NCBI GenBank assembly: GCA_017499595.2
Contig: CM039010.1
Location: 806,001-870,000 of the forward strand
Direction: 5' to 3'
Origin: Psilocybe cubensis
Taxonomy: Eukaryota
Length of the DNA stretch: 64,000 nucleotides
Both the position numbers and the translations under genes were made by a program. Each line of letters opens with the position of its first letter. Within the stretch, counting starts at the first letter, position 1. Shown piece by piece: positions 26,872-44,435 of the stretch. Below the pieces are notes generated by a model. That model saw only the letters and a list, made by a program, of their open reading frames with translations, had not been told where the DNA came from and searched no databases.

Positions 26872-28004
26872 TGAAGCAATCTTTTCAGGCATGCAAATTA
26901 AGGTCACCGACTGGGACATCGACAGGTAGTTCGGTCCTCTCCCACTAACCGTGTGCTTCCATTCTCTATCTAAACCAACCAATCAACCATATTTCTACTG
27001 ACTCGCGTCTGTTGAACGTGACTTGGAATTGTCCATTCAACCTTGCCGACATCAAATTTTTCTGCTTTCTCGCTTTCTTGGTGCTCTCTCTGCATTCGTT
27101 TCCTCGTTTTCGGGAGATTTCTCTCTAAATGCTGTGGTTTCTGCTATCGCTGACATCTTGCTGTCATGGGTGTACACCACCTTTTCTACTCTATTCCTCT
27201 GCTATAATCCAAGCCCTGATTATACCTTCTCCTTTAATCACTCTTAATAATGTACATATTCATCGTATCCGACTCTGATTTCCATGTGGTTAGGAATCTA
27301 GTTCTTTGCTCTTACTCGCTCTCCACTTGACAATTTTGTTACATTTGTCCAATATCTAAGTACTCATTAACTTTAAAATGTACTATACACATCTTTAGGG
27401 TTCCTCGACATTTCAGGGATCACTTTTTGGACATCAATACCATCAATATCTTTCAGCATTACGAATGTGAACTTGAACCCATGTTAAACGACCATTGAAT
27501 GTACAATTCAGGTTCCGCGGAGGCTGTCTCTGTTGCATGACTGAGCAACTTCGGGCCGAATTGACGGGTACAGGCAATACACTGCTGGAGGCCATTGATA
27601 TATGCCAAATAAAAACGAATCAGATACACGTTCTGTATATTAACATGTTGTTTTTGTTGACTTTTTTTTCAAGAAATATGGTTCGGAATGCACTTCCGAA
27701 GTATATTTCTCTAAAAATGTCAATAAAAGGCACTCAATCAAACACATAACGTGTATCTAATCTGTTTTTATTTGACATATATGAATGGGTGCCAGCAGTG
27801 ATAGCGCCCCGACTGAACGTTGAACATTAAGACACCAACGGAAAACCACAATTTCATAATCTTGACATAATGCGGCATTCACCATATAGTGAGTTTAGTA
27901 TCAAGCTTACATTTTTTGTGCATATCTACCTCGATAGTATGTCAATCTGTTACTAGAACGTCTATTCAATATCATTGTTAGCAAATCATCTGCTGGGTAT
28001 GCAT

Positions 28005-29247
28005 TTAATTTGTGGTTGGTCTGCTTCTTTCCAATGCACTATGAACGATGGTGGAAATCAATTGGTCGTAATCAATGCCGATGCCTTCGGCAAGCATAGG
28101 AAAGTCAGATAATCCAGGTCGCAATCCTGCGAGGGGGTTGACCTATTGTTGCCAAATGAGTAATCAAAGGTATGAGAATTGATGGTGACGCTTACCTCAA
28201 TGCAGTTGGGAACAGCATTGGCATCTTTCGAATCAAAGCGGATATCCACGCGCCCTCCGTCTCTGCATCCAAGTACTTTCCAGGCCTTGACAGCAACCTC
28301 AGCCGCCCGTTGAGCTACAGGATTGCTTGAAAGGTCCATGTTAACATGTTGTGGATTGGTTCCCGCTCCCGAACGCTTCACGCTATTACTGTATACTTCC
28401 AATTCAAGTAGTTCTGGGTCTTGGTTGTCAACAATAGTGGCCGGGTCAATGGGACAATTTGGGTTGTCTTTCAAGAATACTATCTCTCGTACGCCAATGG
28501 CTCGGGCACTGGAACCTGTCCCAAGGATGCCTACCGTGAACTCACGGCCGCTCAGGAAGCGTTCGATGAGAATAGTCTGTGTCGGATACCGCAGCGAAAG
28601 GTCCTCGACTACTTTTGCAAGTTGTTCGTAATCAGTGACCTTGTTCGCCTGTTGAATGCCAACCCCGCTGCCTTCTGCACTCGGTTTAGCAAATAAAGGA
28701 AATGTTTTTAATGCCTGACTGTGCGGCGAGCTTTGGATCACGGATTCAACAGAAATCTCGTCGGCTTCGGACCATGTATTCCTGGGCGGCACACACGCAT
28801 ATGGCGCGGAAGGTACACCATAATAGTCCCAGACCATCTACATGCATAAAATTCAGTATATACTCGCTGTGCAAGTATAAATGTCAGCCGCACCTTTGTT
28901 TTTGCCTTGTCAAGGCATAACCCAAGCGTCGCCGAATCCGAAAACGTGAATGGAATGTCCCAGGCCTCCAGCAATGCTGGTACCTGAGCCTCTCGCCCCA
29001 CGCTTCCAAATCCTTCACAAATGTTGAACACAATGTCCCAGTCTGGCTTCGATTTAACAAGCACCTTTGTGAGGGCTTTCAGACCACCAACCATCTCAAC
29101 TGTCCCAAGCTTTCGCAAGGACGCTGCAATTCCCTGAATCGTGTCGTCGCCATCGAACTCCGCACATTGTTCAGCAGAATATCCTAGAGCTAGCCATTCT
29201 TCTCGGGAGTCATATGTGAACGCAATTTTAAGGACAGGGGTAGACAT
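28005..29247 (-). CDS. D-alanine--D-alanine ligase-like ATP-grasp protein (about 377 aa, 2 introns)
   Basis: FNICEG..GREAQVPALLE, LGLCLDKAKTK, FPLFAKPSAEGSGVGI, IERFLSGREFTVGILG, LGCRDGGRVDIR, IEVNPLAGL. Introns at 28838-28893 and 28143-28195. Confidence 0.85.
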
Positions 29248-29815
29248 CTTGGCTCCTTGTGCAAGCCTGGATATTGCGGCCGTTTATACCGAAAGATGCT
29301 GGGGTCCAGTGCGACTCGGAGAATAACAGCGGTTCCGTAGTGGCAACCGGAAAAAGGTTCAAAATAAAGCTTAGAGCTTAGAGGTTGAATAAACACGTTA
29401 AAGCGCGCGAATCTGCACTCGATACTACCTGGTTCTAATAGTACATAGCTGTATTTATACTGTAAATATAGGGGTTTCTTAAAGAGGCTGACAAAGTGAA
29501 GGAAAAAAGGGTACATAAACAACCACATAACATGGTGTAATAGGCCGGTTTCAAGCAGCAAGAATGCAGACTAAGGGATTAAAATGAAGAGGAGAAGCGA
29601 AAAAGATACCATTGATTTATTTATAACTATCGATAACAAATTTAAGTAACTACGAGCATCAAAAGAATTATACCTGTATGGATTAAACACGAATAGCTAC
29701 AATATGAGAACACATGAAGGCAATGTTAACGTAGTTTCAAACAGAGTAAAAAATGCAAAACTCACCAACTCGATAGCAAACAGCCAAGCAAGATCAAATG
29801 GATTTACTTTATGTG

Positions 29816-30257
29816 CTATTGGTCAGTCACACCTATCGAAATAATTTCGATTCAAGGTGCGACCTAAGCCGAGGAGCCACGACAAGGCTGCACAAGGGCG
29901 GTTCCCAACTCGGGAGCCACCCTCTCCTCGGAAAAAAAAAATCCCTCTTGAATCGCGTTCCGAATAGAACGCGAATCGAAGAGGTTGTGATCGCCATTAT
30001 CCAGCGATGGGTGGGTCTCCGTCGGAGACCCCTTTGTCGCTCTCTTGCGAGAACAACAGAGCCGGCCATCGATCGCGCTTTGCAACACGAGAGGCCTGAC
30101 CATTACCGCTCGAGCTCCCTTGCCAGCCAAGTCCTGCCCTACCCGGCAGGCTTGACTGGGGAACGGTAGTAGAGGTAGGGGCGATTTGGGGAATGGGGGA
30201 CAATGGATGGGTAGTATATTTTTGGGGGGGAAGGGAGAGGGACTCGATGTTGTATAC
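29816..30257 (-). ncRNA. Unassigned structured RNA, copy 1 (candidate ~440-nt intron)
   Basis: C-rich leader, then 8-9 helices with GNRA loops, a U tract and a terminal hairpin abutting CTGAC-CAATAG. Confidence 0.55.
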
Positions 30258-30561
30258 CTGCTTCTCACTTGGAGAAGGGTTCAACGATCGAGTAGGAGGA
30301 GGATGTGGGAATGTTTTGCATATATTGTATTTTCTTTAGAAAAAGAGTCAGCAGACAAATCATTGAAACATATGATTGACACGTACATTGGTATATTGCA
30401 TTGTGTTTCAAGCATAGCACATAAAATTCTGTGTATAAAGACAGCTAGTCAGTGCTGAATGTAGAATCATAAACAAAGAAGACTCACAAAGGTTTTTGAA
30501 GGCCGGCTGAGTCTGTTGCTCAAACCGGCCGAGGTAGTGACTAACCTTTTTAATTTATGTG

Positions 30562-30967
30562 CTATTGGTCAGTCGCATCCATCGATTTCGATGGATGCAA
30601 CCTAAGCCGAGGAGCCACGACAAGGCTGCACAAGGATGGCTCCCAACGTGGGAGCCACCCTCTCCTCGGAAAAAAATATCCCTCTTGAACCGCGTTCCTT
30701 TCGGAGCGCGGATCGAAGAGGGTTGTGGGTGGGTCTCCGTCGGAGACCCCTTTGTCGTTCTCTTGCGAGAACAACAGTGCCGGCCTTCAATCGCACTTTG
30801 CAACGCGAGAGGCCTGGCCATTACCGCTCGAGCTCCCTTGCCAGCCAAGTCCTGCCCTACCCGGCAGGCTTGACTGGGGAACGGTAGTAGGGGGTAGGGG
30901 CGATTTAGGGAATGGGGGGGCAATGGATGGGTAGTATATTTTTATGGGAGTGGGGAAGGGATTCGAT
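30562..30967 (-). ncRNA. Unassigned structured RNA, copy 2 (one hairpin and the candidate donor deleted)
   Basis: Same helices as the other copies, but lacks the ATCGCTG-loop-TGGCGAT hairpin and the CAG|GTATAC segment. Confidence 0.5.
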
Positions 30968-31223
30968 GTGGGGATATTTTTCATAGTGTGCTTTCTGTAG
31001 ACGGAGGGTCAATAGACGAATCATCAAAACACATATTGACACATACGTTTGTATATTGCATTGTTTTTTGAGCATAGCACATAAAATTCTGCGTATAAAG
31101 GCGGCTAGTCAGCGCTGAATTAGAATCATGAACAATGAAGACTTACAAAGGTTGTTGAAGGCCGGCTGTGACTATTAGTAGTCTAACCGGCCAATAGATT
31201 AACTGACCTTTTCATTTTATGTG

Positions 31224-31659
31224 CTATTGGTCAGTCGCACCCATCGATTTCGACAGGTGCGGCCTAAGCCGAGGCGCCACGACAAGGCTGCACAAGGATG
31301 GCTCCCAACGTGGGAGCCACCCTCTCCTCGGAAAAAAAATCCCTCTTGAACCGGGCTCCTTTCGGAGCACGGATCGAAGAGGTTGTGATCGCCATTATCC
31401 AGCGATGGGTGGGTCTCCGTCGGAGACCCCTTTGTCGCTCTCTTGCGAGAACAACAGAGCCGGCCATCGATCGCGCTTTGCAACACGAGAGGCCTGACCA
31501 TTACCGCTCGAGCTCCCTTGCCAGCCAAGTCCTGCCCTACCCGGCAGGCTTGACTGGGGAACGGTAGAATGGGGGTAGGGGCGATTTGGGGAATGGGGGG
31601 CAATGGATGGGTAGTATATTTTTGGGGGGGAGGGGGAGAAGGGTCTCGATGTTGTATAC
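31224..31659 (-). ncRNA. Unassigned structured RNA, copy 3
   Basis: Complete set of helices, with GCAA and GAAA tetraloops on the minus strand. Confidence 0.55.
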
Positions 31660-31960
31660 CTGCTTCTCGTTAGAGAAGGGTTCAACGATCGACGACGAGG
31701 AGGATGTGGGAGTAGTTTGTATAGTATTTTTTCTGTAGCCAAGGAGTCAATAAACGAATCAGTGAAACGAATGATTTGTGCATACATTTGTATATTGTAT
31801 TGTGTTTCGAGTATAGCACATAAAATTCTGTGTATAAAGTCGGCTAGTCAGCGTTGAATGTAGAATCATGAACGTTAAATACTCACCAAGGTTGTTGAAG
31901 GCCGGCCGAGTCTGTTGCTCTAGCCGGCCAAGAGATTAACTGACCTGTTCATTTTATGTG

Positions 31961-32395
31961 CTATTGGTCAGTCGCGCCCATCGATTTCGATAGGTGCGGC
32001 CTAAGCCGAGGCGCCACGACAAGGCTGCACAAGGATGGCTCCCAACTCGGGAGCCACCCTCTCCTCGGAAAAAAAATCCCTCTTGACCGTGTTCCTTTCG
32101 GAGCACGGATCGAAGAGGTTGTGATCGCTGTTGTCCAGCGATAGGCGAGTCTCCATCAGAGACTCCATTGTCGTTCTCTTGCGAGAACAACAGTGCCGGC
32201 CTACAATCGCGTTTTTCAACGCGAGAGGCCTGGCCATTACCGCTCGAGCTCCCTTGCCAGCCAAGTCCTGCCCTACCCGGCAGGCTTGACTGGGGAACGG
32301 TAGTAGGGGTAGGGGCGATTTGGGGAATGGGGGGCAAATGGATGGGTAGTATATTTTTTTGGGGGGAGGGGGGGAAGCGACTCGATGTTGTATAC
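31961..32395 (-). ncRNA. Unassigned structured RNA, copy 4
   Basis: Carries several substitutions relative to copies 1 and 3, mostly compensatory or pair-preserving. Confidence 0.55.
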
Positions 32396-35029
32396 CTGCT
32401 TCTCGTTAGAGAAGGGTTCAATCATCGATGGTGTGGGGGATGTGGGGATATATTGCATATTATTATTATTTTCTGTTAGTTGAGAGTCAGTATGCGAAGC
32501 GTCGAATGATATCTGAAGTTCACATACTTTGGTATTCTAGAGCGTCGTTCGATCATAGTAAATAGTTATCTGAAAGGAAGTGCTATCGATTAGCGCTGTC
32601 GAGGACATCGGAAAGGAGAGATACTCACTAAAACTTAATGCGCCGGCTGTTATTTCTACTACAGCCGGCTAAAGTATTCGATGGCCCCTTCAACGTGGGG
32701 CCATATATATCTCATCGCAGTCGTGTATTTGAGGCACACAGCAAAAGAAATCTATAAAACGATGGTAGGTCAGATCAAATCTTGGGCACATCGATGAAGA
32801 AGGAAGCACACCTTGACGCACGCATAATGTCTACTTTTGATAGTGTTGGAACCTAGCGACGTGGCGGCATAAAATGAGTATAGTTGTGTGTACGAAAGAA
32901 ATCAAGGACTTACATCTTGAGGCACACGGTTAGCCATATAATTCATTGATGTCTGAACACGATGCGGAATATATTAGCCACGAAAAGCCATCGATAAGAA
33001 CAAGAACTTACTTGACGCTTAGTGGGCCGGCGGGCAGTTGTACCGCGCCGGCCAAAGTGGTCGGAGAGACCACTGACCTCGTCGACGGCATGGAACCGTC
33101 GATCGAGCTTTGGCATCGAGCGTGTATGCTCGATGGCAGCGCCTCACGTCGCCGAAGCGACGGAGACCTTTATCGACACCGCGCTGCCGTTTGGCTGCGC
33201 GATGCCGATAGTACGATCGTTGGTGAGCGATCGTAAAGGCCTGTGTAAAGTGGAGAGTATGTTAGTACGAGTGCCACAACGAGTGGCACAGCGACGCACC
33301 TTTGTTTGCGGCCTGCTGGATGATGATTGAATCAGCGTCCTCTAAGGACGCGATGCAGTCTTCATCGCATAGCAGGCTTTGGGGGTTTGTGGAGAGAATG
33401 AACGCCAGCTGGACGGGGCTTTATACCTGGGGCATGTGCTGGTTCTTCCCAAGTTGTCCCAAGGTGCCACTCGACTTGTGTGTTGTAGATGAGTAAGAAC
33501 GGCACATCCGGCTCCGGTTTATTCACAAATCGTGACATCATGGCATCGTGGACTTCAACTAATTTCCACATCTGGATTTGAAGCTGGACGTATTCAGGAA
33601 AATTTTCCAAAGGACGTGTGCGCCCGAGGCTTCTGCGGATCGATAGCAATCAGCGACAGGTTGATAAAAGGCGATCCCCTTGTTATTGCTTGTCATTAGG
33701 AATAAAAGGGGTTTAGATGGCACTCACGGCTGTTGATAGTGCCTCGTTGTCGATGCACGTCGACACGCGTAGATGGGATTAGAAGACCTTCTTGAAAGAT
33801 ATGTTGTAAAAAAAGAGTCTATCCGCTGAGTCGGGCATCTATGGATATTTGGAGCCTTTTGTGCGGGTTTCAAAATGGATGCCAGTCTGATTGAAGCCAT
33901 ACCGTTTCTTTTATCGTTTGTTTTCGTTGAATTGCAAACCATACCTAGAATTCGAAACAGGTACCCCTTCCAAAATTTTTAAACGGTGTATTGATATTCC
34001 AGTATGGTGACCCACAGTTAGAGGCGAATCTGCTACTGCCGCTTCCCAAATAACCCACCCATGGTCGGGTCGAGGTACGCTGAGTCATTTGACGCAATCT
34101 CTTTATTCGACTTCGGATACAGCCTATCATACACTTCTTTTGACGTATACACGATAGATCACGCTATGCACAATTTATAGCGATTAGATTCGTTATAATC
34201 AGCGTGTAAACTTCAGTGGTCCTCTAGGTCGACGCGTAACTTTACTGCATTGTACGATAATTTACAAGCATTTTCTCGAACACGATGTTCGAACTCACGA
34301 ATAGACTAAACGGTACATATGTGAATGCGCCGGTGCAGCTTGTTGACCTCGTTCACTGACATCCAATATCAATACCTATATCGACCCCTAACGGAGTCTA
34401 AAAATAGCAGAAGGTCATTGTCGGAAAAAAGGAATGCATGAGCTTGGCTATTCAATGTACAATCAAATCTTTCAAGTGTGAATTTACTTCGAAGGTAATC
34501 AAATAACGACAAATTTACCAAAATATTTAGAGGCGGGTCGACTTCTTTCAACTGAAGGATAGTCGATAAAGTACCTGATCGCTACCCAGAACTGGGGATT
34601 GTCAAGTGTAGTAGGTGCTGCTTCGGACACAGTGAAAAATGATCTGGAATGAACGAAGGTGGATGCCGTGATAGATCGGGTATTCATCGTAGGTTTTTCT
34701 GAGGCTTGATGCTTGGAAAGATTGTAAAGTAGCCAACGTCACCGTCCTCTGTCTTATATGTCTTATATTTCAATGTGAAAGGGACTAGACATACTATGAA
34801 GCCACTGCGGATCTCTTTAGTGAACTATATGGTTGTCCCGAGGCCCGATAACCGTGTACAATTGCACACTAGCTTCGTAATCCTGTCAAACATGGCATGC
34901 GCAAGGAAAATGCCATAGACGCTAATTCTGGAGCTTCAAGATCGTATTATCCCGAAAGCTCGGCCTTAAGTTGAGCGGGCGGAAATAGGTGATCCTAGTA
35001 GTATGCCCTGTAGTTGCGATGTGTAGAGT

Positions 35030-35782: not shown

Positions 35783-36414
35783 TACAAAGTAAAGGTCGTG
35801 TTTCTGTGGAAAGATTAAGTTCGCGGGAAGAAAATTATCGTCGAGAAGGTTGCGAGAAGGCAGTGGGAGTAGTACCATGTAGTACTTACGCCTTGCTCAT
35901 ATATACCTCCACTAACTGAGCCAATTTGCGTTGAGACTGGGCACAGCCGAGCAAGGCACCGGTTGGTGCGCACATGTAAGTGTGTTTTTGAACCACAAGA
36001 AATGACAAATATATTATCCTTGGAATCAATACGGGCTTGGGCAGTGGAAGAAGTCCGCCGAGATAGACGCTCTCATTGGTGCTAATGCCATAAGACGTTC
36101 AATCAGATTGGCGCCGTGGTGTATTCGCCCGAAACAGAGATTTACGCGAGTCAACCTGTGCAGAGCTGTGCACAATGTATATAGGTTTTCGCCAAGCACA
36201 AAGGTAAAGAGATGCGTTTAGACTCGTAAACACGCGAGTCTTCTTCTGCAATTGTAAATTGTAGTGATTGCTGTAGTCAGCTGTAGTCTTTTCGTTACAC
36301 AAATCCCGCGGCCAACGCACTCAAGTGCATATGAGGCCGTGACGGATGGAAATCGTTCACCATCCGACAGAGTGCGCAGCTTAGCTGGAGGAGGAATGTA
36401 AGCTCTCATGAGAC

Positions 36415-36717
36415 TGTTCGAGTCTATAGATGATGTATCTCAGTGTCTTGATGGAAGAACAACTGTTATTATAGACACTACCTATAGATGATGTATCTAT
36501 AGAATACGAGTGAAGGAAATAAGTACTGTGTGAAGTAAACACGAACATAAAACAACATACCTCAGTGTCTTGATGGAAGAACAACTGAGGTATGTGAGAA
36601 CGAGGAAACGCTAAGTTCTACACTGGCGAGAAAGTAAATAAGGATAAACAGGGGTTGACGCGTGAAAGAGGAACATGACATGTGACGCAGAGTGAAGAGA
36701 CGAGATGAACTCCAACA
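36415..36717 (-). repeat. 3' LTR of the copia element
   Basis: TGTT..AACA ends; matches 41646-41948. Confidence 0.97.
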
Positions 36718-36724
36718 GCCCCCC

Positions 36725-39700
36725 TCAGCGAGCTGCGAGCCCGAGTCGTTCGACGTGTCCTTGAAAGACGACTCGGGCAAGGGGCTTGGTGAAAATATCA
36801 GCGGTGTTAAGAATACCAGGAATATGTAAAATGGAAAAAGAGTTTGATTCTACGTGGGAGCGAATGAAATGATAACGGATGTCAATGTGTTTTGCTTTTC
36901 CGTGATTGGAGTCGTTTTCGGCGAGTGATTTCGCACCGTTGTTGTCGGTTGAGAGGACGAGTGGTGAAGGACATGGAATGAATATTTGTTTAAAGGCTTG
37001 TTGAAGCCAGATGCCCTCTTGTACGGAGCGAGTGAGCGCGACATATTCGGCTTCGGTGGAGGACAAGGCGATGCAAGTTTGTTTCTTGGAGGACCAGGAG
37101 ATGGGGCCACCTGCCATCGACCACACGAACCCGGAGATTGAAGCACGGTCGTGTTTCTCACCTGCCCAGTCAGCATCAGAGAGGCCCGTTAAAGGGATGT
37201 TGCGATTCTTTCCACCGTAATGGAGTCGAAAGGATTTTGTCCCTTTCAGGTAGCGTAGGACGCGTTTTGCAGCGTTAAAGTGATGAGGTGAAGGATTGGA
37301 GCAGTGTTGGGATAGGAGTTGTACAGCATACGCAATATCGGGTCGAGTGTTCATCTGAAGAAACAGTAGGGAGCCGATGAGGTGTTGGTATGTTCGTTTG
37401 AGGTCGGGAATGTTGTCTAGTGTTGACGATTCGTCCCCAGAACCTAAAGGATTATCTCGATCGAGTGGAGTTTTCACGGGATTACAGTTGGTAAGATCGA
37501 ATTCAGTGAGGAGGGATTCTATGAAAGATTCTTGGTGCAACCACAATTCGCATGTAGCGCGATTGCGTTCGAAGTAGACACCGAGAAAACATCTGACAGG
37601 ACCGAGGTCCTTGATGCCAAAAGCTTTCCCTATCTCGATCTTGAGATGACTGAGGAATTCGCCGCAGTTGGAGGCACCCAGACCATCATCGACGTGCATT
37701 GCGAGAAGGCAGTGAACTCGCTTTCCGTTCCAGATGCGATTGAAGAAGAAGACAGCGTGATCTTGTTCTGAGCGAAGGAAACCAAGGGCTTCAAGGGTTT
37801 TGCGAAGGAGTTGATACCAAATGAGGCTTGCTTGTTTGAGACCGTATAACGACTTCAAGAGCTTCCAGCAATTGCCCAAGATGGAGCTGTAGCCTTTCGG
37901 AAAGCGCATATAAATGACTCGCGCAAGGTCGCCCCACAGGAAAGCACGAGTTGCATCAAAGCACTCGAGTTCCCAGTTGTTGACGGCTGCAAAGACAGCA
38001 ATCATGCGAACTGAGGGTGATTTGACGACAGGTGCGAACACCGCGTCATAATCGACCATGTGCACCTGTGAAAACCCTTGCGCAACCAGTCTTGCACGAT
38101 AAACGAGAGGGCCTCCATCGGGCGGCAATTTAAACTCGAGTACCCAACGATTCCCAATGCAGTGACAGCCTTCCGGAAGGAAAACAATCTCATAAACTCC
38201 CATTTTCTTTAGATCCTCTAATTCCTTCAGCATCACCTTCCGCCACTCCTCCGCATCGGGTCTCTTCATCGCCTCATAGAAATTTGCGGGGGGAATAGAC
38301 ATGTTATATCCCGGTGCTTTTGGATTACGTGCTGTGTCGCTTCGAACAGATAGGAAAGCCGTTTCAAAAGAGCTGTCGACGTCCCGCTGAAGATAATCGG
38401 CGACGTCCAGAGAGGCAACCATGGCTGCCAGATCATCTGTTTTCACAACAGGTTCGTTTCCTTCAACAGCTGGGAACATGTCTGGAATTTCAGCACCAAT
38501 GGCGTCTTTGCAGAGGCATACAAACTCTTCATCTTCCGCCCGAACTTCCTCCACACACATCACCTCCACCTCCGCTAGCAATGCTGCACGCTCTCGGGCT
38601 GCCTGCCGTAGAGCTCGATTTTCCCTGCATTTTTCTAGATGCGCTTTTGCCGCTTCTACCGTTTCTTTCCATCGGACGCCGCCTGAGGTAAGTTTCCGTG
38701 TTTCTCGCAGACTGGCTGCTGGTGGAGGTGCGTGACTCGCCTGTTCAGCTGGGGAGACAGCAGGTTCAGGTGACGAGGGAAGAGAGTCAGTGGATTGCGG
38801 TGAGGCCTGAATGACCGCAGGGTCTGGGGATGCTGTGGGTTCGGATGATGAAGACACGGACTTTGAGTGGCTCGCACGTTGATTACGTTGGGATGACACG
38901 CTATCGTGGACATCCTGTGGGAAAGGGAAAGAAGAGTAGTCCATTTCTTCCTCCGAAATCTGCAGTCGAGCTTTGTATGGTATGTTCTCGTCAAAATAAA
39001 CAGACCCGGAGTCGAAGAAATGATTAGTTGACAGGCAACGTACTCTGTATCCTCTTCCAGAGGGTGGATAACCCATGAAAATGCATTCGACGGATTTTGC
39101 ACCGAGTTTGGATTGAAGATCGAGCGGTACATGCGCGAAACACCTGCACCCCCACACACAAAGGTACGAAATGTTCGGCTTACGCTCTTGGAAAATTTCA
39201 AAAGGAGTGACATCTTTAGGCAGTGAAGAGATCACAGTAAGATTCCATAGGTAGGCGGCGCACAGAGCGGCTTCGCCCCAATACCAGAGTGGAAGTTGAG
39301 CAGCAGTGATCATTGCAAGCATCCGTCCTTGCAGTGTCCTCAAACAACGCTCCATTTTGCCGTTCTTCCAGTGCTCGGCACGAGGAATCACGTCTGCAAT
39401 GACGCCGTCAGCTTCTAATTGACCGAAAAAGGCTTTCGAGGTAAACTCTCCAGCAGGATCAAAACGAAGGACTTTGAGTAATTTGCCAGTCTTGCGTTCC
39501 CAGGCGCGTTTAGTGATGAGATATGCATCCAGCGCTTGTGATTTGTCGGCAAGTAAGTGGCACTTTATGGCGTCGGAGCAATCATCCATGAAGACAATCA
39601 TGTATAACTTTCCGTGTGGGGTCAACACAGGGAAAGGACCACAACCGTCGACGTAGACAATCGCTAGAAGGCAGTCCGCTTTGGGAGTTTTGGAAGAGGG

Positions 39701-41440
39701 AGCGGGGTGCCTGGCATGCTTCCCAATGATGCAAGGTTCGCATCTTTCCATTTTATCTCCTGCAGGCAAGGTAACACCTATTGTGGAGTGCACGAGGCGC
39801 CTTGTTGCAGCTTCCCCGATGTGACCCATGCGATGGTGCCACAGATCAAGGGTTTCTGGGACTTTGGCGTATAATGCAACTTCTGGCATTACAGATTCTG
39901 GCATTAGAGTTCGAGGAAGCGTAGGCAATGGAGGTAAGAACTCGACGTTGAGGAAGAAAAGATTATTGATGATGTCGTTCTTGTAGATAACGCTGTGCGG
40001 ATTTTTGCGAATGAGTGAGAAGACACCATCATCGGAGGCAAAGCCGATTTTGCTGTTCTTCGCAACAATTCGACCTAGCGACAGCAAGTTGAGCGTTGCG
40101 TCAGGTGAATGTAAGCAGTCGTTCAGTTTGACAACAGTGGAGTGAGCATTGAGGGAGACGCGCATATAGCAGGTCCCTCGTGCTTTGGTGCGAAGTACGC
40201 CGGCGTTTGCAGTTACCATATCGCGTGCAGCATCTGGCTCATAGGACCAGAAATAAGAGCGGTCTTTGATTAAGTGCGAAGTAGTGCCTGAATCAATGAT
40301 TGTGTTTGCAAGGGTTGACGCCATGGCAGTGAGATCTAAAGGTGCGTTTGAAGAGACCTCTTCAATGGTTGCACACGACAAGTCACCGAGAAAGTCGTTT
40401 GGGTAGAAAGAGGGCGAGACGTATGTTGACGTCGAAGCAGTTGGCACAACGACAGCAGCGACTTCAGTCGCAGCAGCAGCGGCGACTTCAGCCTTTAATA
40501 TTTTGTCGACGTCTTTTGCTTTCGCTCTTTCCTTCCCTTTTCCCCTTGGGCCTTGGCCCTCCATGCCACCACCTTTCGCAAAACAGTGAGCCGCGTCGTG
40601 AGACCGTAATTTGCAGACTGTGCATGCCACGCCATCCGGATTTTTATCATGTATGCGAACACCTGTTGCTTCATTGACGAGGTTGACGTACTCGGATCCC
40701 GGGCCATTTGTGCGACTGGAAGGATTCCTATAGGCCAAACGGGCACATTCAACTGTCAAACGTGAGATGGTTCTTGTCAACAAAGTGTCAGGAGGATCTG
40801 GATTTGCAGCGCTCTGTCGGGCAATATGATCCTCCATGTTCTGTGTCAGGAGCATTTGAAAATGCTGCCAGGAGCCATGATTTGGCAGGCCGCGAATAAT
40901 GCCATGAACCATTTCGTACTCGGTGTATGGTACTCCCATCTCGATGAGTTTGGATCGACCGCGTTGAAATTCACTGATGTAGTTGTCGAGATCGTTATGA
41001 TCTTTCAGCTTCAACGAGTGCAGGCGATCCTTGATGAGGAATTGACTGGCCGTGTCCTGACGCGCATATAGTAACTTAATTGCAGCCCAGACTTCGCGTG
41101 CGGTTTTGTACTTCTCGTATGGGAGAAGTGACAGGGACACAGGTGAGATTCGGTGTTCTATGAGAGAGCGTGCCTTCATGTCATTAAAACTCCATGCATT
41201 GTAGGCGTCTTCTTGTGCATTGGTTGCACCCTGGAGTGGAACGTGAGGGGCAAGTTGTTGAGCGTCGTGGTGCCTCGGATTTGGCGCTCTGGGATTTCCT
41301 TCGACGTATCCCCATAAATTGTTTGTTCGTAGGAACGTCGTCATTCCGCGACGCCAAGCATCGTAGTATGAAGCTCCAACAAGAAGTTCGATGTCGCCAA
41401 TTTTTATGGCGCTACTTCCGCCAGTAAGAGCAGCGGCCAT
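36725..41440 (-). CDS. Copia gag-pol polyprotein (1571 aa)
   Basis: Gag, CCHC knuckle CTVCKLRSHDAAHC, protease IIDSGTTSH, integrase (WHHRMGH..CEPC, D..D..E), RT (LYGLKQA, HVDD), RNase H (SDADWAG, AEYVAL, DIFTK), in copia order INT-RT-RH. Confidence 0.97.
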   Translation of the reverse strand: MAAALTGGSSAIKIGDIELLVGASYYDAWRRGMTTFLRTNNLWGYVEGNPRAPNPRHHDAQQLAPHVPLQGATNAQEDAYNAWSFNDMKARSLIEHRISPVSLSLLPYEKYKTAREVWAAIKLLYARQDTASQFLIKDRLHSLKLKDHNDLDNYISEFQRGRSKLIEMGVPYTEYEMVHGIIRGLPNHGSWQHFQMLLTQNMEDHIARQSAANPDPPDTLLTRTISRLTVECARLAYRNPSSRTNGPGSEYVNLVNEATGVRIHDKNPDGVACTVCKLRSHDAAHCFAKGGGMEGQGPRGKGKERAKAKDVDKILKAEVAAAAATEVAAVVVPTASTSTYVSPSFYPNDFLGDLSCATIEEVSSNAPLDLTAMASTLANTIIDSGTTSHLIKDRSYFWSYEPDAARDMVTANAGVLRTKARGTCYMRVSLNAHSTVVKLNDCLHSPDATLNLLSLGRIVAKNSKIGFASDDGVFSLIRKNPHSVIYKNDIINNLFFLNVEFLPPLPTLPRTLMPESVMPEVALYAKVPETLDLWHHRMGHIGEAATRRLVHSTIGVTLPAGDKMERCEPCIIGKHARHPAPSSKTPKADCLLAIVYVDGCGPFPVLTPHGKLYMIVFMDDCSDAIKCHLLADKSQALDAYLITKRAWERKTGKLLKVLRFDPAGEFTSKAFFGQLEADGVIADVIPRAEHWKNGKMERCLRTLQGRMLAMITAAQLPLWYWGEAALCAAYLWNLTVISSLPKDVTPFEIFQERKPNISYLCVWGCRCFAHVPLDLQSKLGAKSVECIFMGYPPSGRGYRVRCLSTNHFFDSGSVYFDENIPYKARLQISEEEMDYSSFPFPQDVHDSVSSQRNQRASHSKSVSSSSEPTASPDPAVIQASPQSTDSLPSSPEPAVSPAEQASHAPPPAASLRETRKLTSGGVRWKETVEAAKAHLEKCRENRALRQAARERAALLAEVEVMCVEEVRAEDEEFVCLCKDAIGAEIPDMFPAVEGNEPVVKTDDLAAMVASLDVADYLQRDVDSSFETAFLSVRSDTARNPKAPGYNMSIPPANFYEAMKRPDAEEWRKVMLKELEDLKKMGVYEIVFLPEGCHCIGNRWVLEFKLPPDGGPLVYRARLVAQGFSQVHMVDYDAVFAPVVKSPSVRMIAVFAAVNNWELECFDATRAFLWGDLARVIYMRFPKGYSSILGNCWKLLKSLYGLKQASLIWYQLLRKTLEALGFLRSEQDHAVFFFNRIWNGKRVHCLLAMHVDDGLGASNCGEFLSHLKIEIGKAFGIKDLGPVRCFLGVYFERNRATCELWLHQESFIESLLTEFDLTNCNPVKTPLDRDNPLGSGDESSTLDNIPDLKRTYQHLIGSLLFLQMNTRPDIAYAVQLLSQHCSNPSPHHFNAAKRVLRYLKGTKSFRLHYGGKNRNIPLTGLSDADWAGEKHDRASISGFVWSMAGGPISWSSKKQTCIALSSTEAEYVALTRSVQEGIWLQQAFKQIFIPCPSPLVLSTDNNGAKSLAENDSNHGKAKHIDIRYHFIRSHVESNSFSILHIPGILNTADIFTKPLARVVFQGHVERLGLAAR

Positions 41441-41645
41441 GTTTAGCAGTGACTAAGAAATATCCCAGAGTATGAGATGCAGTGCAGTGAATTTACGCGT
41501 GTTGACCCAGATACGAACCGAGTAGAGACAACGCTCAGTGAGTGATTGACAGTGTGTGTGATTTGGGTTGCTCAAGCTACGGAGAAGACCAGTATGTCTT
41601 CGAAACAGATGTGTCCGCCTTTACGTGAAGGCGGGGCCCATAACC

Positions 41646-41948
41646 TGTTCGAGTCTATAGATGATGTATCTCAGTGTCTTGATGGAAGAACAACTGTTAT
41701 TATAGACACTACCTATAGATGATGTATCTATAGAATACGAGTGAAGGAAATAAGTACTGTGTGAAGTAAACACGAACATAAAACAACATACCTCAGTGTC
41801 TTGATGGAAGAACAACTGAGGTATGTGAGAACGAGGAAACGCTAAGTTCTACACTGGCGAGAAAGTAAATAAGGATAAACAGGGGTTGACGCGTGAAAGA
41901 GGAACATGACATGTGACGCAGAGTGAAGAGACGAGATGAACTCCAACA
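41646..41948 (-). repeat. 5' LTR of the copia element
   Basis: No differences from 36415-36717 seen by eye. Confidence 0.97.
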
Positions 41949-44363: not shown

Positions 44364-44435
44364 GCCTTCTTGGCGTAGTGGTAGCGCGTCGCACTTGTAA
44401 TGCGAAGGTCACTCGTTCAATCCGGGTAGGAGGCA
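44364..44435 (+). tRNA. tRNA-Thr (anticodon UGU), intronless
   Basis: Acceptor stem GCCTTCT/AGGAGGC; D arm GCGT-AGTGGTA-GCGC; anticodon arm TCGCA-CTTGTAA-TGCGA; T arm ACTCG-TTCAATC-CGGGT; T-rich run downstream. Confidence 0.95.

Follow-up and report, generated by a model that had tools for sequence, protein, structure and literature searches.

A question raised by the window analyzed here (the whole stretch of 64,000 nt from Psilocybe cubensis contig CM039010.1, positions 806,001 to 870,000 of the forward strand, whose own numbering is used throughout) is what to make of about ten hairpins placed back to back at 33012-33370, beside a tandem array of four units at 29766-32569. The original prediction took these hairpins for a functional RNA domain, unrelated to the array and carried in the same minus-strand transcript. 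The analysis presented here favors, at a probability of roughly 60%, the reading that these hairpins form a structural module at the 5' end (exon 1, an intron of 59 nt and exon 2) of an undescribed hairpin-chain RNA, the product of a spliced, non-coding and TATA-driven gene on the minus strand, which continues through three small exons into the array; continuity through the whole of the array is presumed. Direct support for this reading comes from the structure itself, its strand, its splicing, its lack of coding capacity and a pattern of natural variation that spares the stems.

All ten of the stems originally named form when folded singly on the minus strand, with energies from -5.9 to -29.0 kcal/mol, and six of the ten are perfect Watson-Crick hairpins with a stem of at least 7 bp. 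The window contains 58 such perfect hairpins, compared to 32.9±7.0 in block shuffles, and six of the 58 fall in the single bin 33001-33500, against a mean of 0.45 per 500-bp bin. The folding energy of 33012-33370 also lies well below that of dinucleotide-shuffled controls: -179 kcal/mol (z -11.0) for the minus strand and -176 kcal/mol (z -8.0) for the plus strand, and for neither strand did any of 100 shuffles fold as well. The predicted exon at 33012-33240, referred to below as exon 2, folds to -129.8 kcal/mol on the minus strand with 70% of its bases paired (z -10.99, 200 dinucleotide shuffles), and its plus strand reaches z -6.16 against the same number of shuffles; an excess on the plus strand is expected because any set of palindromes must show it. 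The 361 nt directly upstream (33400-33760), used as a control, gave a z of -0.21. A structured block at ~32950-33400, with sharp borders and unstructured flanks, was delimited by two scans, one sliding across 28-36 kb and the other GC-regressed and covering the window as a whole. Nearly all of the remaining strongly structured segments lie in exons of the array, the main exception being a long inverted repeat at ~27600. Exon 2 shows an excess of CpG (observed/expected 1.51) and of TCGA, a self-complementary word that occurs there at 26 per kb compared to 4.9 per kb in the window.

Most, although not all, of the listed stems are present in the modelled mature RNA. The stem at 33271-33289 lies inside a 59-nt intron (33241-33299), and the stems at 33335-33351 and 33350-33368 overlap by two bases; when folded in context the first of this pair forms and is extended by outer pairs, and the second does not. 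The mature RNA would thus consist of seven exon 2 hairpins and one composite exon 1 hairpin with its tip at 33335-33354. In the direction of transcription the exon 2 hairpins are predicted at 33212-33235, 33171-33210, 33143-33167 (with a cUUCGg loop), 33114-33135, 33078-33107, 33056-33074 and 33025-33053, the last of these being a GC clamp. Their stems are mostly 6-8 bp with loops of 4-8 nt, and the longest helix is 14 bp with 3 bp more beyond a bulge, all other helices being of 6-12 bp. The joined exons 1 and 2 (325 nt) fold to -165.9 kcal/mol (z -10.9), and 95 of the 111 pairs in this model span 45 nt or less.

The strand of the structure is the minus strand, as indicated by special tetraloops and G-U pairs that are valid on that strand only. 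The exceptionally stable cUUCGg loop ascribed to 33147-33162 was recovered by folding, and its UUCG reads on the minus strand; GAAA and GCAA loops are found on the same strand in the array, and all three belong to special tetraloop classes. The 14+3-bp stem at 33171-33210 contains the G-U pairs that had been described for it, two in number, and folds to -29.0 kcal/mol on the minus strand compared to -20.9 kcal/mol on the plus strand. A consensus fold of the four array copies contains 133 pairs, four of them with compensatory double changes. Among the variable pairs of this fold, 20 alternate between Watson-Crick and G-U on the minus strand and three contain A-C or C-A, a count that is somewhat biased by the fact that the structure was predicted with G-U pairs allowed.

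Evidence for transcription and splicing of the minus strand was provided by contigs from four sequencing runs, aligned to 32200-34200. Two of the runs (X1 and X2) are DNA-like and two (X3 and X4) are probably RNA; the X3 and X4 contigs, from runs that share one species label, carry a version of the locus that is 90-95% alike. Joints that read CT..AC on the plus strand, equivalent to GT..AG on the minus strand, were found in X3 and X4 at 32752-32811, 32853-32913 and 32953-33011, and all three joints have a depth of 0 in X1 and X2. A fourth joint, in X4, connects 33246 to 33321 with 22 letters between; this resolves to the removal of 33241-33299, since the intervening letters match 33300-33318 once the sequence is spliced at 33240|33300, the aligner having overrun six bases into the intron. 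Both the minus-strand transcription and the exon borders at 33012-33240 proposed in the original prediction are borne out by these contigs. A further joint, 32675 to 32713, was seen in all four runs and is therefore a DNA difference.

In the resulting model, which uses the GTAAGT, CTRAC/TACTAAC and YAG signals typical of the short introns in this window, exon 1 occupies 33300-33395; an X4 contig covers 33374-33321 of it and continues into exon 2, and its 5' end is placed provisionally. A TATAAA box at 33420-33425 on the minus strand, ~25-45 nt upstream of the first base in a spliced contig (33374), is a likely promoter element judging from its sequence, and suggests a transcription start near 33390. 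Intron 1 (33241-33299, 59 nt) has the signals GTGCGT, TACTAAC and CAG, and the 229-nt exon 2 that follows is covered by contig from 33246 to 33017 and is spliced at both ends. Intron 2 (32953-33011, 59 nt, GTAAGT..CAG) appears in X3 as a joint from 32952 to 33017, with five variant letters filling 33012-33016. Two micro-exons, exon 3 (32914-32952, 39 nt) and exon 4 (32812-32852, 41 nt), are defined by spliced contig and splice motifs and are separated by intron 3 (32853-32913, 61 nt; joint 32850 to 32912, cut +2, in X3 and X4, with a depth of 0 in X1 and X2). Intron 4 (32752-32811, 60 nt) appears as a joint from 32751 to 32812, likewise in X3 and X4 with a depth of 0 in X1 and X2, and leads to exon 5 (32629-32751), which is covered by contigs, contains a hairpin at ~32681-32706 and ends in a clamp hairpin at 32642-32669. 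The four array exons would then follow on the minus strand at 32569-31887, 31732-31147, 30994-30488 and 30333-29766; spliced contig covers 32516-32439 of these, and their other borders are drawn from splice motifs. The five introns of the 5' part of the gene measure 59-61 nt and the array introns 152-154 nt. A single 367-nt contig leads from exon 2 across both micro-exons into the beginning of exon 5, and a second contig, which overlaps the first by 29 nt, crosses a further intron and reaches 32439 inside the first array unit. The claim that the hairpins and the array share a transcript is thus upheld as far as the edge of the array. Coverage in X3 and X4 stops at 33405 at the top and ~32439 at the bottom, and is uninformative as to the ends of the transcript.

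No coding capacity was found in this transcript. Stops occur in all three minus-strand frames of 33012-33240, one per frame, as had been reported, and the spliced nine-exon model of 2872 nt contains no ATG-initiated open reading frame (ORF) of more than 94 aa, with 85 stops over its three frames and several upstream ATGs. Exon 1 carries only ATG-CGA-TGA and one ORF of 8 codons, a 74-codon ORF starts in exon 2, and the short ORFs of the array units change frame between units after indels. On the plus strand there is an open frame of 104 codons at 33016-33330, which matched no Pfam family past the threshold (best E 0.062), and neither did an ORF of the array; a search of near lengths gave nine candidate protein relatives for the plus-strand frame and 25 for the array ORF, none of them scored. 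A protein-coding exon is not supported, given the stops in every minus-strand frame, the ORFs of at most 94 aa and the lack of a family or homolog for these two ORFs. At the gathering score, the one match to Rfam 15 in the window is a tRNA-Thr at 44364. A relaxed search (E up to 5, 29500-33600) added two box C/D matches, scoring 23.1 and 18.8 bits where the cut-offs are 45 and 65; they fall within the array on its plus strand, and 33012-33395 gave none. Exact-pattern scans of metagenome and viral contigs, which find near-identical sequence only, gave no matches to a 24-mer of exon 2 or to a pattern of 37 positions taken from the core of the array. No report of such a fungal RNA was found in the titles and abstract openings of the literature searched.

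The distribution of natural differences in exon 2 indicates that its stems are spared. The best-supported differences among the four runs comprise 15 substitutions and one insertion in exon 2, with 78 further differences over the 2 kb outside this list. Ten of the 15 substitutions are unpaired in the minus-strand fold, in which 30% of bases are unpaired (binomial p 0.004); of the remainder, two turn C-G into U-G on the minus strand and three are at helix ends, and the insertion is at a loop edge. In the hairpin at 33114-33135, four of the six loop bases differ and none of the 16 stem bases do. The 12 listed changes from X3 cost +5.8 kcal/mol, compared to +21.8±5.7 kcal/mol for 400 random sets of the same base changes, only 1% of which were as mild. 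The word "functional" in the original prediction is supported indirectly, by variants that avoid the stems and by tetraloops and G-U pairs that exist on the minus strand only. In the DNA-like runs, several versions that are 90-99% alike extend over all of 32200-34200, the untranscribed DNA upstream included; they may reflect allelic differences in a heterozygous or dikaryotic strain, or else a segmental duplicate.

The stated lack of kinship between the hairpins and the array holds for the body of exon 2 and fails for its last 42 nt, a clamp hairpin and spacer that recur where exon 5 ends and in the array exons. Kinship of the body with the array was rejected on the basis of local alignments, which scored 19-24, within the range of shuffles (maximum 26-27), the two best short matches being in opposite order. 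The last 42 nt aligned with the end of exon 5 at a score of 27, compared to 15.6±2.1 and a maximum of 27 in 200 shuffles. The clamp, GCCGG..CCGGC, lies at 33025-33053 on the minus strand and precedes the 5' splice site by 13 nt. The pattern GCCGG-N(4-30)-CCGGC occurs six times in the window against 0.62 expected, and five of the six are inside this gene (in exon 2 and exons 5-8), each 13-14 nt upstream of a GTRAGT donor (33011, 32628, 31886, 31146 and 30487). Since all five clamps keep this spacing from a donor, the large exons can be described as hairpin chains closed by one type of clamp. The idea that the clamp is an insulator keeping the 5' splice site single-stranded found no support, as the unpaired probabilities of the donors were 0.08-0.52 and no better in exons with the clamp than in the others.

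The array exons are built from a C-rich single-stranded tract, a chain of hairpins and a clamp. Each array unit begins, on the minus strand, with a conserved, unpaired C-rich tract of ~90 nt (30174-30235, 30894-30955, 31574-31635 and 32309-32370), opposite which the plus strand carries GGGG runs that are candidate G-quadruplexes. The array introns at 30334-30487, 30995-31146 and 31733-31886 are AT-rich (34-38% GC); they fold as shuffled sequence does, and the exons are better conserved than they are. In exon 5, a 37-nt segment at 32676-32712 that forms a complete hairpin (GGCCCC..GGGGCC) is replaced by six letters in another version of the locus, and array unit C lacks one 19-nt hairpin and one further block. 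This suggests that hairpins are gained and lost as whole modules, with a palindrome process at the DNA level supplying the raw material.

These observations can be assembled into a proposed mechanism. Exon 2 would fold during transcription into seven independent, very stable short hairpins set end to end, with selection acting on the stems and overall shape rather than on the loops or primary sequence, and with the last hairpin serving, as in the array exons, as a GC clamp 13-14 nt before the 5' splice site. Such a chain may turn the 5' part of the RNA into a rigid rod that is proof against ribosomes and resistant to nucleases, or into a docking platform for proteins; the transcript would thereby be left untranslated and stable, and the repeated array units would carry a bound partner. 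Hairpins that lie between the cap and an ORF block scanning ribosomes once their stability reaches about -30 kcal/mol, and the predicted energies here are -29.0 kcal/mol for 33171-33210 and -129.8 kcal/mol for exon 2, values at which a structured 5' leader would be expected to block scanning. With its TATAAA box, splicing, absence of a coding ORF, folding z of -11 and four repeat units, the locus has the features of a structured, repeat-bearing long non-coding RNA (lncRNA).

The same hairpins might instead be palindromes of the DNA, born of template switching or insertion and maintained by quasi-palindrome correction, in a locus that is incidentally transcribed and gives an RNA of no role. The coming and going of whole hairpins (the replacement of 32676-32712, the losses in unit C), the good folding of the plus strand (z -6.2) and the enrichment of exon 2 in TCGA and CpG all suit this explanation, which we nevertheless consider unlikely: the imperfections of the stems are biased by strand (in the array 20 G-U on the minus strand against three A-C), both stem transitions in exon 2 yield U-G on the minus strand, the UUCG, GAAA and GCAA loops read on that strand only, and the hairpins are restricted to exons, the array introns folding like shuffles. 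Still less probable is a fragment of a transposable element (TE) or satellite. The several 90-99% alike versions of 32200-34200 in the DNA-like runs and an intact Copia element 3 kb away are what such a fragment might leave, but these versions extend equally into untranscribed upstream DNA, in the manner of alleles or a segmental duplicate, the long terminal repeats (LTRs) of the Copia element end at 36414, the ORFs scanned nearby yielded no TE protein domain, and blastn with a word size of 7 found no second copy of 32700-34300 in the window. The original prediction had named conserved plus-strand coding sequence or a TE fragment as findings that would tell against it; on the first, the plus-strand ORF is without a family, and on the second, the window is without a second copy, although the 90-99% alike versions do exist.

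Two further explanations accept a structured transcript and assign it another fate. The hairpins could form a long structured 5' leader of a coding mRNA, either of the ATP-grasp gene that lies directly downstream on the same strand (ATG at 29247) or of a short ORF such as the 74-codon one, and a 5' splice site (29765) at the end of the last array exon, which implies that further exons follow, counts in favor of this. The ATP-grasp gene, however, has its own TATAAA ~45 nt upstream of its ATG, an AATAAA is present at ~29620, past a plausible last acceptor, the ORFs of the array units are not conserved in frame, and ~2.9 kb containing 85 stops and several upstream ATGs could hardly be scanned, making a leader distinctly improbable. 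The Dicer products raised in the original prediction would call for a precursor of small RNAs, whether microRNA (miRNA)-like or hairpin small interfering RNA. A series of hairpins in an RNA polymerase II (Pol II) transcript is compatible with such a precursor, and a separate inverted repeat of ~220 nt located 5 kb downstream shows that hairpin loci do occur nearby. Dicer products need roughly 20 bp, however, and yeast RNase III uses AGNN loops, whereas the longest uninterrupted helix here is 14 bp (with 3 bp beyond a bulge) and exon 2 has no AGNN-type loop; the probability of a small-RNA precursor is accordingly judged to be very low.

Comparison to known systems places the proposed lncRNA gene near, and apart from, several of them. 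It resembles the mammalian Xist A-repeat hairpins and NORAD repeat units in being a Pol II, spliced, non-coding transcript whose function there resides in tandem units or hairpins with conserved stems; here, the host is fungus-like, the exon 2 hairpins all differ instead of repeating a single motif, pairing takes up nearly the whole of the exons, and a GC clamp closes each large exon at a constant distance from the donor. Polycistronic miRNA precursors and fungal miRNA-like precursors share the arrangement of several hairpins in series on one Pol II transcript, but the stems here (6-14 bp) fall short of what Dicer needs, and the loops are tight, ranging from tetraloops to octaloops. Hosts of small nucleolar RNAs (snoRNAs), such as GAS5/UHG and fungal intron-encoded clusters, are likewise multi-exon non-coding genes of repeated exon-intron units; in those the introns are conserved, whereas here the exons are conserved and structured, and a snoRNA would not fit into the introns of 59-61 nt around exon 2. 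A snoRNA host gene was rejected given the 59-61 nt of introns 1-4, array introns that fold like shuffles and the lack of an Rfam match at threshold, and the words UGAUUC and CUGAC, found in the array introns of 152-154 nt, fit better as branch points than as snoRNA boxes. Bacterial repetitive extragenic palindromes and interspersed mosaic elements (REP/BIME) and mitochondrial GC clusters also consist of short GC-rich hairpins set end to end and gained or lost as modules, and hairpin runs of the REP/BIME type shield bacterial transcripts from exonucleases, as the chain described here might. Those elements are multi-copy, near-identical and mobile or extragenic, unlike the unique sequences found here in nuclear spliced exons.

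Several points weigh against the proposed lncRNA gene. The plus strand of exon 2 also folds far beyond chance (z -6.2), and the scans of metagenome and viral contigs gave no relative from another species that would allow a covariation test of exon 2 itself. The labelling of X3 and X4 as RNA is a guess, and both runs come from one study; the link between exon 2 and the array depends on two contigs that share 29 nt, and the contigs reach neither the start site nor the 3' end, nor the main part of the array. The variant test is partial, using 12 of the 22 differences that the X3 contig shows, and relies on a structure predicted from the sequence of the window itself. The calculation of 5' splice-site accessibility gave no support to an insulating clamp, the loops share no function-bearing motif, no partner protein is known, and the proposed roles in blocking scanning, in stability and in docking are inferences.

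The neighborhood of the gene contains several other features. The ATP-grasp gene at 28058-29247, on the same strand and with its own TATAAA, encodes a D-Ala-D-Ala-ligase-like protein (Pfam PF07478, E 4e-20), and it is conceivable that the RNA gene exerts transcriptional interference on it. Just downstream of the ATP-grasp gene, an imperfect inverted repeat of ~220 nt at 27590-27810, which forms a single long hairpin (-110.5 kcal/mol, z -11.7), is, on its predicted fold, the best candidate in the window for a miniature inverted-repeat transposable element or a small-RNA hairpin. On the other side, the Copia-type retrotransposon occupies 36414-41944 and has an uninterrupted gag-pol ORF of 1575 aa (36725-41452, minus strand); its 300-bp LTR segments are 100% identical, and it looks like a recent insertion. 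The window also carries a PI-PLC gene and a protein-kinase fragment.

A more far-reaching interpretation of the proposed gene, which we offer tentatively and regard as doubtful, is that it represents an undescribed class of nuclear "hairpin-chain" lncRNA, built from modular, hyperstable mini-hairpins and acting as a scaffold by shape only, with the GCCGG..CCGGC clamp as a new kind of exon-end signal. The exon-junction complex normally sits ~24 nt upstream of a junction, a position that the clamp covers, and the signal would control, for instance, what is deposited on the spliced RNA. That the clamp blocks loading of the exon-junction complex is speculation; the argument is one of position, and the micro-exons lack a clamp. 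To our knowledge, clear selection on secondary structure is seen in few lncRNAs of any organism, and in hardly any of fungi. The spliced transcript described here has exons that are ~70% paired, variation that spares its stems and a clamp that recurs at five donors. If private to its lineage, it would still be an unannotated gene of a kind likely missed by gene callers. If relatives exist elsewhere, it may become a tractable model of shape-only selection in a long RNA, and of how structure at the end of an exon bears on splicing or on the marking of spliced RNA.

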